Assembly: GCA_038046805.1 (NCBI GenBank)
Contig: JBBSVO010000006.1
Location: forward strand, 132,452 to 196,451
DNA: 64,000 bases
Source: Candidatus Micrarchaeota archaeon
Lineage (GTDB): Archaea; Micrarchaeota; Micrarchaeia; Anstonellales; Bilamarchaeaceae
Direction of reading: 5' to 3'
Shown here: piece by piece, positions 30,585-37,558 of the stretch
Position numbering within the stretch: the first letter of the stretch is position 1
Layout: the number at the start of each line of letters is the position of its first letter
Program-made: the position numbers and the translations under genes
The notes under the pieces: generated by a model
Databases searched by the model: none
What the model saw: the letters and a program-made list of their open reading frames with translations, nothing else
What the model was told of the DNA's origin: nothing

Positions 30585-30896
30585 ATGTTGCTTGAAATCT
30601 TCATTGGCACGATAATCATCGCACTTGCGCTTTACTCAATCTGGAAGTTAACCGAGTCGCCCATCTCATTCAATAATAATATCTCTCGCGGTAAAAACAC
30701 CTTGAACATTGAGGCAAAGAGGGACATAGATTATTTGGTTATTCTGGATAAAATCGGAAAAGCGCAGCATATTTCATTTGTCCGCAGGAACATAAAGAAC
30801 GGAGAAACACTGGAATTCACTTATCCAGCATCGTCCCATACTGCAAAAATAGTTCTTGAATGCAAAAACAAAACTTATGAATTCGAGGTTATTTAA
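30585..30896 (+). CDS. Small membrane-anchored hypothetical protein
   Basis: N-terminal TM; GGTG RBS; stop overlaps the next start. Confidence 0.65.
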   Translation: MLLEIFIGTIIIALALYSIWKLTESPISFNNNISRGKNTLNIEAKRDIDYLVILDKIGKAQHISFVRRNIKNGETLEFTYPASSHTAKIVLECKNKTYEFEVI

Positions 30897-32005
30897 TGGC
30901 TGAGAGCAAAGGAAATGCCAAAATGCCAATTTTGCTTTACCGTGGGGAGCATTTTGATTCAAATTTTTTCTATTCTTCCGGAGTTGATCTAGACCACTCA
31001 TTTTTTCTTTCAAATCCCCGGGTTCTTTTTGTTCCGAAGCTTAATTTCACGCTTGCCAGAAGATTGTTTTCCGGACGGGTTATCGCTTATTCGAATGTTT
31101 CCGAGGTTTTAGGAAAGTTTATACGGAAAAAACAAATCAGAATGCTCGGAACAGACTTCCGTTCTCTTCCGGTTTCGGCTTATAAAAAACTGTCAAAACT
31201 AGCGCGTTTGAAGGACTATTCCGAGCAGTTTTTGCTCGTTCGCGCTAAAAAGCGGAAAAACGAAATATCAAAAATACGAAAAGCAGTTCAATTTTCAAAA
31301 AAGATTTTCTCAGAATTGGAATCTCGGATCCATCATATGAAGACCGAAAGCGACGTGCGCAGCTTTCTTCTCACCCGCACGCTTGAACTGGGTTTAGAAC
31401 CTGCATTTGAACCCATTACTGCAAGCGGCTCAAATTCGAGATTCCCACATTACCAGTCCGGGAATAATGCGAAGTTGCACGATATGGTTTTGGTGGATTA
31501 TGGCGTGCGATACGAACATTATTGCAGCGATTTAACCAGGTGTTTTTTCCTTAAGCACGGTACAAAAGCAGAGAAAACCTATTTGGTTATGCAGGAAATG
31601 TTCGCGGATATTATAGATAATTTCCCAGATTTCGTCTCAGGAAAAGATCTCGCGGTTTTCACTGAAAAATTATACGCGAAGCATAGTCTTCCACTCCCGC
31701 CGCATTCAATAGGTCATGGGATCGGACTTGATGTTCATGAATACCCCCGACTAAGCAAAAGATACAAAGATCTGCTCGTTGGAACAACGATGGCGATTGA
31801 ACCGTCTGCTTATTTCAATTCATTTGAAAAACGCAGCTTGCGGAAACCCTGCACTTCAGTGCTGGGAGGAGCGTTTTTCAAAAGCTTTGCTCTTCGGCCC
31901 TTGAAACCGCTGCCTTTAGGTTGCGGTGGCCGAATGAGCAAATCATTCGGGGTCAGGTTTGAGGAAACAATTGAATTCAACGGAAAAAAGGCGAAGGTTT
32001 TATAA
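30896..32005 (+). CDS. Xaa-Pro aminopeptidase (M24B) carrying a 41-aa in-frame insertion
   Basis: PHY, VDYG, YCSDLTR, HSIGHGIGLDVHE, IEP...GVRFEE metal ligands. Confidence 0.92.
   Translation: MAESKGNAKMPILLYRGEHFDSNFFYSSGVDLDHSFFLSNPRVLFVPKLNFTLARRLFSGRVIAYSNVSEVLGKFIRKKQIRMLGTDFRSLPVSAYKKLSKLARLKDYSEQFLLVRAKKRKNEISKIRKAVQFSKKIFSELESRIHHMKTESDVRSFLLTRTLELGLEPAFEPITASGSNSRFPHYQSGNNAKLHDMVLVDYGVRYEHYCSDLTRCFFLKHGTKAEKTYLVMQEMFADIIDNFPDFVSGKDLAVFTEKLYAKHSLPLPPHSIGHGIGLDVHEYPRLSKRYKDLLVGTTMAIEPSAYFNSFEKRSLRKPCTSVLGGAFFKSFALRPLKPLPLGCGGRMSKSFGVRFEETIEFNGKKAKVL
31820..31947. mobile_element. Palindromic mini-element, copy 1 (123 bp plus TCATT repeat), in-frame inside the peptidase
   Basis: TCATT at 31820 and 31943; near-identical to 36159-36330; removal restores YFNSFGVR. 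Confidence 0.85.
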
Positions 32006-32037
32006 TTTGTTCAGCGTCTAATCTTTTATTATTCTTC

Positions 32038-32087
32038 GCAGGGATAGCAATCCGCTTGAACTGATGTTCAAATCTTGTCATCCCTGC
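32038..32087 (+). other. tRNA-Leu-derived mini-hairpin (5' and 3' tRNA ends without D or anticodon arms)
   Basis: GCAGGGATAGCAA equals tRNA nt 1-13; GTTCAAATCTTG and TCCCTGC match the tRNA 3' part. Confidence 0.7.
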
Positions 32088-32127
32088 TTTAGGTATTTAT
32101 TCGTACCTATCCTAAATTCATACTACT

Positions 32128-32251
32128 GCAGGGATAGCAAAGCCTGGTCAAATGCGCAGGACTTAAGGAGCCTTTTGACTTCTAAGTAGGTCTGTGGTTT
32201 CGGAAATCCTGTCGCTTAGTGCGTTCGCAAGTTCAAATCTTGCTCCCTGCA
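32128..32251 (+). tRNA. tRNA-Leu(UAA) with 38-nt intron at canonical 37/38 (32168-32205)
   Basis: GCAGGGA/TCCCTGC acceptor stem, CAGGA-CTTAAG^A-TCCTG anticodon arm, long variable arm, GTTCAAATC T loop; relaxed BHB. Confidence 0.93.
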
Positions 32252-34746: not shown

Positions 34747-35955
34747 CTAGAAAAACGTTTTATCCAATCCTTTCTCAACTATTTTCTTGAGAAGCAAATT
34801 CTTGACTTCTTCGTCTTCAATAAGGATATTCATTAGTTCATTTGGTTTCTTGTTCGGATCAATTAACAATGTTTTTTCATCAAGAGGGTTTCCGCATTTA
34901 CCGCAGAATGATTGGACTGGCGAGTTTTTCTCTTTACAACGTAAGCAAGTTTTGATATTCAGTTTAACTTCTTTTTCTTCTGTTTTTTCTTTCAATGAAT
35001 AGACCTGCAATAACGCGTTATCAACATCCCGACCTGACAAATGAACATAGGTTGAAGCCATGTCTGAGCCTTGCGTCCAGCCAAAGTGTTCTTTCATCTG
35101 ACTTTCAGTAAGTTTGTTTGCCAACGCAGTGGCTCTTGAATGTCTAAACAAATGAGGATGAACTCTTTTCCGTATCCCTGCCTTTTCAGCAAGTGTTTTG
35201 ACAAGCACGTAGATCGAGGCATAGCGGAGATATCTATTTTTGTCCGAGTAATTAGTTGCAGACTGGGGCCATAAAGCAGCTTCTGGATCTTTTCTTGCAG
35301 GATGGATGTCAATCCAAGATGTCAGGATTGGAGCAGCCATTATTATGCGAACTCGTCTATCGCCTGTTTTGCCAGTTACTCTTAGCACAGCTCCGTATTG
35401 GTCAAAGCTGACATTTTTCATCCGCAAACTTAATATTTCGCCTATTCTGCAACCAGATTCGTATAAAACCGTGATAAATGCGCGATCTCTTTGCGTGGTT
35501 GCCATTTCAGCCATTTTCAAAACTTCGTCTTCAGTTAGCAAATGCTCGGGTAGTTTGTGATTTTCATTCTTTAGCTTTGGAGTAAGCCACCGTATCTCTG
35601 GAGGGAAAATCTCATCATTTCCTTTCAACCATTTATAGAACATTTTGAGAACGATTTTGAAGTCGTATTTGGTATGCTCTGCATAGTCCTTTGTTTCCAG
35701 GCTTCCGATCAAGTTTATGAGGTCGTCCTTTGTGGCTTCCTTAAATGGTTTCTGAAGCCATATCGCCAGGAACCTTAGGCAGTATATGACTTTTGCCACC
35801 CGGCCGTGTCCAGAGCCTTTTGCCAAGCGTATATTAGCAAATGCCTTGATCTCCTCGATGTTTTCTTTTCCAATGCCCTTTTGTTTACTTAACTGCTGCA
35901 GGCTTAATTCTAGCCTGCGCGGATAGTCATACAATTCCAACCTTCCGTTTTTCAT
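34747..35955 (-). CDS. Tyrosine recombinase/integrase with C-terminal Zn ribbon
   Basis: LYESGCRIGE (R), GKTG (K), HPHLFRHSRAT (HxxR), HFGW, TYVHL (Y); CLRC...CGKCG. Confidence 0.95.
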   Translation of the reverse strand: MKNGRLELYDYPRRLELSLQQLSKQKGIGKENIEEIKAFANIRLAKGSGHGRVAKVIYCLRFLAIWLQKPFKEATKDDLINLIGSLETKDYAEHTKYDFKIVLKMFYKWLKGNDEIFPPEIRWLTPKLKNENHKLPEHLLTEDEVLKMAEMATTQRDRAFITVLYESGCRIGEILSLRMKNVSFDQYGAVLRVTGKTGDRRVRIIMAAPILTSWIDIHPARKDPEAALWPQSATNYSDKNRYLRYASIYVLVKTLAEKAGIRKRVHPHLFRHSRATALANKLTESQMKEHFGWTQGSDMASTYVHLSGRDVDNALLQVYSLKEKTEEKEVKLNIKTCLRCKEKNSPVQSFCGKCGNPLDEKTLLIDPNKKPNELMNILIEDEEVKNLLLKKIVEKGLDKTFF

Positions 35956-36158: not shown

Positions 36159-36330
36159 TCATTTGAAAAACGCAGCTTGCGGAAACCCTGCACTTCAGTG
36201 CTGGGAGGAGCGTTTTTCAAAAGCTTTGACGCGCTTCGCGTCAAAATTTGACATCATGGATGTCAAAGCCTTGCTCTTCGGCCCTTGAAACAGCTGCCTT
36301 TAGGCTGCGGTGGCCGAATGAGCAAATCAT
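36159..36330. mobile_element. Palindromic mini-element, copy 2 (168 bp plus TCAT repeat), with two extra hairpins
   Basis: First about 70 bp identical to copy 1; 45-bp insert; last about 57 bp with 2 mismatches. Confidence 0.85.
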
Positions 36331-36434: not shown

Positions 36435-37052
36435 ATGGATTTAGACAAAAACTCCATCTTTTCAACCAATTGGCGCATGTTCTACTGCCTCAGGCCATTC
36501 CAGTTCGATCCGCTTGGCGAGAAATACGGACTGGAGATAGAACGTGAAATCAGCGCTACGGGATTCGATATCTCCCACGAGACTGTTTTTGCATATTTGA
36601 ATCATTATTGCAGGTCGGGCATACTCAGGAAAAAAAAGAGGGGCAGACAAACATACTTTTCAGTTGTTCCTGAGAATGCGATGTCTGTCCTCGCCCTTCT
36701 TGAGCAGGAGCGCACACATTTATTCCTCCAGAAATCCAAGCTTGCCATGCTGCTGACAGAAATTTCTTTCGAATGCAGTTTTGCCCTGCTTTTTGGTTCT
36801 GCCGCAAGAAGCCAGGAAAGGGAAAGCAGCGACGTAGACATTCTAGTTGTAGATGGAAAATCAAACGAGGATATAATCTCAAAAAAAGAAGCAGTATTCG
36901 GAATCAAGATAAGCATTCATTCTGTTTCTATGAAGGAACTCAAGAGTCAATGGCACAAGGAGCCAGTCTACAAGGGCATATGGAGAGACAGGACCATACT
37001 TAAGAATTATACTAGATTTTGGGAATTGGCCTTGAAGGAGGGAAAACCATGA
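36435..37052 (+). CDS. wHTH + minimal nucleotidyltransferase (MNT antitoxin)
   Basis: LLFGSAARSQERESSDVDILVV. Confidence 0.88.
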   Translation: MDLDKNSIFSTNWRMFYCLRPFQFDPLGEKYGLEIEREISATGFDISHETVFAYLNHYCRSGILRKKKRGRQTYFSVVPENAMSVLALLEQERTHLFLQKSKLAMLLTEISFECSFALLFGSAARSQERESSDVDILVVDGKSNEDIISKKEAVFGIKISIHSVSMKELKSQWHKEPVYKGIWRDRTILKNYTRFWELALKEGKP

Positions 37053-37558
37053 AGCTTGAAAGATGTTTCGAAGGAACGCCAGAAATACCACCAAGACTTA
37101 TTGAGCAGGGTGTGGATATTGACGCTGCAAAAACCCATCTGGAAAAAGCCGAGCATAATCTTCATGCTGCACAAAAAATGGCAGAAAACAAATTCTTCGA
37201 CTGGCAGATAGTGTGCGCTTACTATTCAATGTACCACGCCACGATGGCGGCATTGTTTTTGGTTGGGCTTGAAGCCAGGTCACATGAATGCGCAATCGCT
37301 GCTTTCGAGGCGTTCTACATAAACAAAAAGGTTCCAAAGGAATACACTGCCTACCTGAAGAACGCCAAACAGCTTAGCAAGACATATTCGGATACTTTGG
37401 CTGATGCAAAGACGGAACGGATAAAGGCGTCGTATGGTCTAGGAGAGATAAAATCCGATCAGGCAGGCAAAGTAATGTCCAATGCACGTGCGTTTGTAGG
37501 AGAGATAAAGACTCTCGTTTATGCTGCTTCTGGAAACGAATATGTGAAGATGAAATGA
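37049..37558 (+). CDS. HEPN domain protein (toxin partner of MNT)
   Basis: KAEHNL.AA, AYYSMYHA..AAL, RSHECA, RIKASY; ATGA overlap with MNT. Confidence 0.88.
   Translation: MKLERCFEGTPEIPPRLIEQGVDIDAAKTHLEKAEHNLHAAQKMAENKFFDWQIVCAYYSMYHATMAALFLVGLEARSHECAIAAFEAFYINKKVPKEYTAYLKNAKQLSKTYSDTLADAKTERIKASYGLGEIKSDQAGKVMSNARAFVGEIKTLVYAASGNEYVKMK

Follow-up and report, generated by a model that had tools for sequence, protein, structure and literature searches.

According to the portions of PMC3201880 and PMC5934647 available to us, the ends of the transposon IS608 are defined by four guide bases that are located 5' of each end hairpin and pair with the tetranucleotide at which cleavage occurs; at the left, the target lies beyond the element, and at the right, the cleavage site lies within it. 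IS200/IS605 elements are present in more than 65% of the Micrarchaeota genomes according to a 2026 survey (PMC13343696), the accessible text of which does not treat gene-less elements such as the one described here. Transposase-free elements with IS605-type ends are known as PATEs from Haloquadratum walsbyi (PMC3119063), and palindromic repeats that reside in coding sequences are known from Rickettsia (RPEs; PMC10969869, PMC2229807) and from Methanocaldococcus jannaschii (Suyama 2005, as cited in the accessible part of PMC2229807). The mobilizer of the RPEs is not named in the available sections of PMC10969869 and PMC2229807, and the question of how coding palindromic repeats move has been left open by reviews, as far as their accessible text goes, ever since the RPEs were described.

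Here we analyze a 123-bp gene-less repeat that resides in a peptidase gene within a 64,000-nucleotide stretch of DNA from a Candidatus Micrarchaeota archaeon (this whole stretch is referred to as the window; Table 1). The genome to which the window belongs (G000) has a size of 1.2 Mb, and its reads stem from groundwater; sequencing runs that share only few words with it are no evidence of habitat. We consider it probable that this TCAT-bounded repeat is a PATE that is moved in trans by TnpA and translated as a surface loop of 41 residues. A published description of the element family was not found in the literature that we searched, in which few subscription journals were covered.

Table 1. 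Features of the host gene, the element and its second copy (positions in the window), and inserts in other genes.
Feature	Position	Strand	Remark
Xaa-Pro peptidase (M24B, prolidase-like), 369 aa including the insert	30896..32005	+	Pfam PF00557 and PF01321
TCAT target, putative left cleavage site CL, host sequence	31820..31823	+	conserved left boundary, preceding base variable
Element, 123 bp, 41 codons in frame	31824..31946	+	
Left module, in which an outer stem (31823-31834 paired with 31871-31882) surrounds the guide and the inner hairpin	31823..31882	+	fold
Putative left guide GAAA	31843..31846	+	predicts TCAT by the IS608 rule
Left inner hairpin, TTCA loop, IS200/IS605 end type	31847..31866	+	
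Right module, in which an outer stem (31886-31899 paired with 31928-31942, one bulge) surrounds the guide and the inner hairpin	31886..31942	+	fold
Putative right guide GAAA	31903..31906	+	guide/boundary covariation
Right inner hairpin, TTTA loop	31907..31926	+	7 of 8 pairs with compensatory change
Terminal TCAT, putative right cleavage site CR, inside the element	31943..31946	+	
Copy 2, intergenic: TCAT target (36159-36162) and 168-bp element (36163-36330)	36159..36330	+	
Mini-element of 45 bp with two hairpins, inserted in the linker of copy 2	36225..36269	+	absent from copy 1
AroA (L158), in-frame insert			gap versus G000 orthologue
Rad50/SMC (L170), in-frame insert			gap versus G000 orthologue
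PGM/PMM (L136), in-frame insert			gap versus G000 orthologue; outside the 59-copy set
YkgJ (L078), in-frame insert			gap versus G000 orthologue
ThyX (L155), in-frame insert			gap versus G000 orthologue
Metallophosphoesterase-like protein (L110)			gap versus G000 orthologue; named by motif, no Pfam match
TrpE (L034)			Pfam match spans insert
Amidohydrolase (L143)			Pfam match spans insert
Acyltransferase (L137)			Pfam match spans insert
uS11, insert just behind the start codon			only the usual low-complexity tail in 16 orthologues
Purine phosphorylase (P0008), in-frame insert			from protein searches
TatD (P0018), in-frame insert			from protein searches

The best PDB structural matches of the host protein are prolidases and X-Pro aminopeptidases, and its Peptidase_M24 domain (Pfam) spans residues 126-359. 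The gene is present in single copy in G000 and was found in 93 of the 99 genomes of the host family and in 35 of the 35 high-quality ones. Its reading frame (30896-32005) passes through the insert without a stop, as expected from an earlier note on this DNA that had described an in-frame, stop-free stretch of 123 bp or 41 codons. The insert had been placed between the last two Glu motifs; it does lie between E302 and E356 and, more specifically, at the turn between the two strands that bear these residues. All metal ligands (D201, D212, H274, E302, E356) are intact and invariant among 22 aligned sequences. The 41 residues are absent at each of 24 orthologue loci (24/24), including that of the same-genus genome G001 (82% identical); insert-free sequences show one clean gap between IEPSAYF and GVRFEE, and every other match to the peptidase in the family ends at or before query residue 313. 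In silico removal of 31824-31946 leaves a loop of orthologue length, so that both the predicted restoration of a normal M24 loop and the proposed comparison with empty-site orthologues turned out as the earlier note had anticipated.

A misassembly of the insert was rejected, since both junctions are crossed by low-depth contigs that stem from other studies' runs (X14 and X17 for the left one, X8 and X15 for the right one). No single contig extends across the whole insert because 70 bp are common to copy 2. Both junctions are present in the contigs of eight runs from six studies, and no empty-site joint was found there; these data consist of low-depth contigs, and two of the eight runs are flagged as possible sources. 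One 338-aa variant (P0001) leads from the peptidase into the nested insert of copy 2 and then reaches a stop. The most plausible reading is a chimera formed via the shared 70-bp repeat, which in X3 makes up a unitig of its own with roughly twice the depth, and P0001 may also be a real allele; a deletion matching P0001 would take out the tRNA-Leu gene. With junction-bridging contigs and many further copies at hand, the scenario in which only two copies exist and the reads reveal a local misassembly falls away.

The boundary of the element consists of four bases and not, as first proposed, of TCATT repeats. Among 34 copies, the right TCAT is followed by T in 13, A in 11, C in nine and G in one, and the base before the left TCAT varies as well; a 5-bp duplication of TCATT was rejected for this reason. 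Tallied across the copies, as had been suggested, the boundaries read either TCAT..TCAT or TGAT..TGAT. The left and right 4-mers are identical, and the insertion hence resembles a 4-bp duplication. However, three copies carry TTAT on the left and TCAT on the right, a combination that fits a G-T wobble and is not given directly by duplication; it therefore favors a target plus the element's own end. A MITE with terminal inverted repeats was rejected on the grounds that the ends covary as direct and not as inverted repeats in both subfamilies; they share only TTTG/CAAA, each of which is part of a separate stem. A known RNA family was likewise rejected, with no Rfam match at four loci except for the neighboring tRNA.

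Folded as DNA, the element attains -37.4 kcal/mol (z -7.12), a stability reached by none of 200 shuffled sequences, which substantiates the two modules, each with an outer stem and an inner hairpin, that had been recognized by eye. The structure of the left module is kept despite a different sequence in other subfamilies. Over 26 nt, its inner hairpin shares 88% identity with the right-end hairpins of canonical IS in relatives, in keeping with the likeness to IS200/IS605 hairpins already suspected. Compensatory changes were found in six of the seven pairs of this left hairpin, in 13 of the 15 pairs of the inner hairpins altogether, and in five of the 14 pairs of the right outer stem. Over all 29 modelled pairs, 18 are changed on both sides, a number not reached by any of the 500 shuffles or by any slid control, with the structure used in this test having been derived from the same alignment.

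A pattern scan of the genome collection for the right module gave 17 matches, 15 of which carry titles naming Micrarchaeota or Bilamarchaeaceae; chance matches made up two of the 17 genome loci (both bacterial) and three of the 15 metagenome loci. A covariance model built from 12 copies, outside of which the left outer stem was left, matches 10 of the 99 genomes of the host family and seven of the 150 genomes of the order. From all fetched loci and G000, a regular expression retrieved 59 non-redundant copies of 51-385 bp, a set that missed several model matches (e.g., L136, L138, L141, L149). The non-autonomous family presumed from two copies is therefore borne out. Intact copies of the TCAT type mostly measure 120, 123 or 126 bp, with 122 and 125 bp as exceptions. 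In a search for viral carriage, none of 29 pattern matches was an element.

The second copy, reported as near-identical at 36159, is indeed located there, between an integrase gene and an MNT-HEPN pair. It differs from the peptidase insert by three substitutions over 123 bp, and it is longer owing to an additional 45-bp two-hairpin insertion. Judging from this sequence comparison, the insertion in the peptidase gene is young. Inserts related to the 45-bp mini-element occupy other positions in three further copies (L047, L057, L168), and units of this type have target-dependent flanking repeats of 3-4 bp. G000 contains 84 pairs of adjacent hairpins (a count that includes overlapping pairs and has no shuffle control) composed of bulged hairpins of 25-30 bp, some of them positioned inside IS200 left-end hairpins (L001, L064) and inside copies of the element.

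Several observations concern the surroundings of the two copies. Copy 2 is flanked by a tyrosine integrase with a C-terminal CxxC pair (34747-35955, minus strand) and by an MNT-HEPN toxin-antitoxin pair (36435-37558, plus strand), and this region is possibly an island integrated near tRNA-Leu. The tRNA-Leu(UAA) gene (32128-32251, plus strand) has an intron in its anticodon loop, was missed by ARAGORN at default settings and found by Rfam; a short tRNA-like duplicate of both of its ends is present just upstream (32038-32088). Long tRNA introns exist elsewhere in G000 (C3:97878-98168, C3:116340-116593, C7:18710-18950, C6 near 20177, C11:15220-15487). Several of these introns contain nested hairpin pairs and, with an outer stem, GAAR and a hairpin, look like a single module of the element; in one of them, the stem TTTGAAAAACG recurs in a hairpin pair. 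G000 also has two copies of a third PATE-like type, at C2:137068-137213 (plus strand) and C4:99770-99915 (minus strand), in which the guides read GAAG and the ends TCAC.

The relationship between guides and boundaries speaks most directly to the question of who moves the element. At the right end, a guide starting with G is present in 22 of the 22 TCAT copies with a called guide and in none of five TGAT copies, four of which have C; at the left end, the corresponding numbers are 19 of 24 and none of six. These guides were counted by an automatic caller, which gave either no call or a wrong one in decayed and nested copies. The sister subfamily (G000 and relatives) combines TGAT boundaries with CAAA or CATA guides at both ends, and across the copies GAnA accompanies TCAT and CAnA accompanies TGAT, again at both ends. 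Canonical tnpA right ends of the same lineage have GAAG or GACG together with TCAC. All of these guides fit the pairs guide1:C-3, guide2:C-4 and guide4:C-1, the first two of which are stated in the available part of PMC5934647, with the third taken from IS608 sequences; the third guide base, which should be unpaired, is variable (A, T, G). The covariation amounts to few independent switches (two subfamilies plus the canonical IS ends), and p-values hence overstate it. Judged by these sequence features, the element is likely a non-autonomous IS200/IS605 derivative, that is, a PATE, and a Y1 TnpA of the HUH type acting in trans is its likely mover.

G000 encodes one intact-looking Y1 TnpA (a 165-aa open frame), located at C3:134483-134830, and one TnpB. 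TnpA was detected in six of 10 element-bearing genomes versus 19 of 89 others (p 0.015, with kin not being independent); it was not seen in four of the 10, among them G069 with its 11 matches, these genomes being incomplete MAGs. Mobilization by an HUH transposase, as put forward in the earlier note, gains support from the covariation of guides and boundaries; a tnpA gene with these ends was not found, as none of 32 tnpA/tnpB loci gave a strong model match to the ends of the element. Without such an autonomous parent, membership among the PATEs, only some of which have a known parent (PMC3119063, in its accessible part), becomes less likely. The putative right cleavage site is located 16 nt plus TCAT beyond the hairpin, as compared with about 8-9 nt in the local IS ends, and each end is wrapped in an outer stem; both features count against TnpA as the mover.

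The missing parent also fits a different mover, which we regard as unlikely: the outer stems would form a mobile dumbbell handled by a recombinase or by repair with a 4-bp core, the IS605-like hairpins would be passengers, and both the family and its read-through would be the same. Core-less copies of 51-72 bp with the same ends are common. Four 66-bp copies that lack guides and inner hairpins yet share the junctions and TCAT ends vary at nine of 14 loop positions and at none of 48 stem and linker positions; the guide-less form may thus be mobile. Moreover, many other nested two-hairpin units with flanking repeats varying with the target exist in the genome. However, a dumbbell leaves unexplained why both guides and both boundary 4-mers switch jointly according to the IS608 rule, and why the inner hairpins have accumulated compensatory changes. 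Loss of the core after insertion, for its part, is known for PATEs (PMC3119063, in its accessible part). We therefore continue with TnpA as the likely mover.

When the element was removed in silico, 24 of the 59 sites fell into a long open reading frame, and 17 of these 24 stay open with the element in place, which completes the tally of in-frame insertions that had been called for. All 17 have lengths divisible by three; 11 are in antisense and six in sense orientation. The seven broken genic sites are mostly at the start or near the end of the gene, with two possibly being true disruptions. In 13 in-frame cases, including the peptidase, homology is found on both sides of the insert (Table 1), which supports the claim of new in-frame protein sequence in an archaeon. 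In uS11, an internal GTG start downstream of the insert may be used. Outside of the 13 are L139, L107 and L146 as well as the family-less proteins L068, L087, L161, L172 and L044, which carry the insert in frame and lack homology on both sides. GatD (L147, P0007, P0011) appears to be interrupted by a 177-bp copy that separates the N-terminal domain from the asparaginase domain. This may be an in-frame insert that was disrupted during assembly; the pieces of GatD lie on different contigs, and it is not counted among the 13. The four 66-bp core-less copies (L158, L161, L170, L172; G005) all reside antisense and in frame in genes.

Among copies shorter than 100 bp, lengths divisible by three occur at nine of 10 genic versus three of eight other sites (p 0.043). 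In the window copy, the conserved ends place stops in three of the six frames, and both the frame used and its antisense counterpart are open; since such stop-bearing ends leave few open frames, the phase of the in-gene copies is nearly uniform. Of 14 non-genic copies with lengths divisible by three, 11 have an open frame +2 and 11 an open frame -2, as compared with about 0.29 by shuffling, which is only suggestive of selection for open frames, eight being sister copies and two being situated at gene ends. Some TGAT-type copies directly follow a stop codon, and one antisense TCAT copy directly precedes a start codon (ATGA); the gene is intact in each of these cases, which were seen at G000 C4 near 125690, at C1:54330 and in L074.

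The insert in the peptidase is likely translated as an additional protein loop and not spliced out. Both strands are used and the length in multiples of three is conserved, which speaks for read-through by the ribosome. Removal at the RNA level, raised as a possibility in the earlier note, could proceed via a tRNA-type splicing endonuclease, or ribosomes could bypass the insert, and the peptidase would be normal; we judge this very improbable. Removal is favored by the direct repeats on either side of the insert, by the many long and structured tRNA introns of the host, some of them shaped like one module of the element, and by the relaxed specificity of the splicing endonucleases of Micrarchaeota. 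However, none of six equivalent cut registers forms the 4-bp central helix and flanking stems of a BHB motif, the best having three of four central and two of five flanking pairs; at this strict setting, the tRNA intron in the window likewise went undetected, and relaxed motifs are possible. Removal would not require that in-gene copies in both orientations be stop-free and multiples of three throughout. In addition, a contig from an RNA run (31902-32062; low depth, DNA carry-over possible) retains the right junction, and the joined form was absent from the contigs of the eight runs. Removal at the RNA level was thus not upheld.

If the insert is translated, the peptidase could still be inactive, the insertion being a recent deleterious one fixed by drift in a near-clonal population. 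We hold this to be improbable, if somewhat less so than removal from the RNA. The insertion is young, the 41 residues are basic, contain cysteine and lie between two metal ligands, and the dN/dS of about 0.12 versus G001 mostly predates the insertion. Against inactivation stand the retention of this only copy of the gene by all of the high-quality family genomes, and the contigs of the eight runs, in which the empty allele was not seen. Other M24B prolidases have long natural insertions at the same turn, which likewise counts against inactivation; a literature search for such insertions returned no match. Finally, an AlphaFold model of the peptidase with its insert (pLDDT 89) predicts that the fold and the ligand strands are kept: the pita-bread strands 304-307 and 351-361 are retained and residues 313-345 form a low-confidence loop, with 21 of the 22 sequences of the input alignment being insert-free and biasing the model toward the normal fold. 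Translation into a tolerated loop hence remains our preferred reading.

The proposed mode of movement would be as follows. TnpA would bind both inner hairpins on single-stranded DNA, and the GAAA guides would pair with TCAT, thereby directing cuts 3' of the host TCAT and 3' of the terminal TCAT of the element. The excised element would be pasted 3' of a new TCAT, an outcome that would mimic a 4-bp duplication. With active copies of mostly 120, 123 or 126 bp and one stop-free frame per strand, landing in the right phase would leave a gene open; selection would remove disruptive landings, and in-gene copies would shrink by steps of three. We also entertain, far more tentatively, a wider reading: that of a 'peel-and-paste' single-strand mini-transposon whose length and ends are tuned for in-frame read-through on either strand, a codon-neutral alternative to IStron splicing. 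No earlier RPE-type coding repeat would have had an identified, reprogrammable mobilizer; TnpA would excise the element without leaving a scar, and the shorter guide-less dumbbells persisting in genes would derive from it.

RPE-like behavior joined to ends that obey the IS608 rule would provide coding repeats with a mover that can be named, and a one-base change in the guide predicts a switch from TCAT to TGAT. The copies also offer a natural series of inserts of 17-59 residues, from intact to trimmed, in conserved enzymes of archaea with small genomes, which is useful for studying the tolerance of new protein sequence; in genome annotation, such peptides should be recognized as element-derived.

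Several features connect the element with known systems, as far as the accessible text of the cited papers goes. It resembles the IStrons, composites of a group I intron and IS605, in its IS605-type ends, its fixed target and its harmless residence in genes; IStrons are spliced by a ribozyme, whereas the element is far too short for this, has no Rfam match and is apparently read through. With IS608 it shares a guide 4-mer 5' of the hairpin that predicts the cleavage 4-mer, a target outside and a right site inside the element (PMC3201880, PMC5934647), and a similar left spacing to the foot of the hairpin (23 nt versus 19 in IS608); in contrast to IS608, it has no tnpA or tnpB, a right spacing of 20 nt versus 10, identical CL and CR, and outer stems. 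The RPEs are, like the element, palindromic repeats (about 120-150 bp) that reside in frame in unrelated conserved genes and are tolerated as loops (PMC10969869, PMC2229807). The element has another host and is probably unrelated to them in sequence, the scans of the genome collection having returned no Rickettsia record; it also differs in its use of both strands, in a peptide that varies from one subfamily to another, and in ends that are indicative of a specific single-strand transposase. The PATEs of H. walsbyi come closest in build: they, too, are transposase-free, have near-terminal palindromes of the IS605 type, use a short target oligonucleotide, occur in core-deleted forms (52 bp) and have palindromes targeted by smaller repeats (SMR-A; PMC3119063), and they lack long terminal inverted repeats, as the element appears to do. 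Unlike in PATEs, the end hairpins of the element are wrapped in long outer stems, the left target equals the 4-mer at the right end, and the lengths are mostly multiples of three with many copies in frame, the accessible text of PMC3119063 reporting no PATEs that code in frame. The family described here is thus a PATE-type element combined with RPE-type behavior: real, mobile and recurrently coding.
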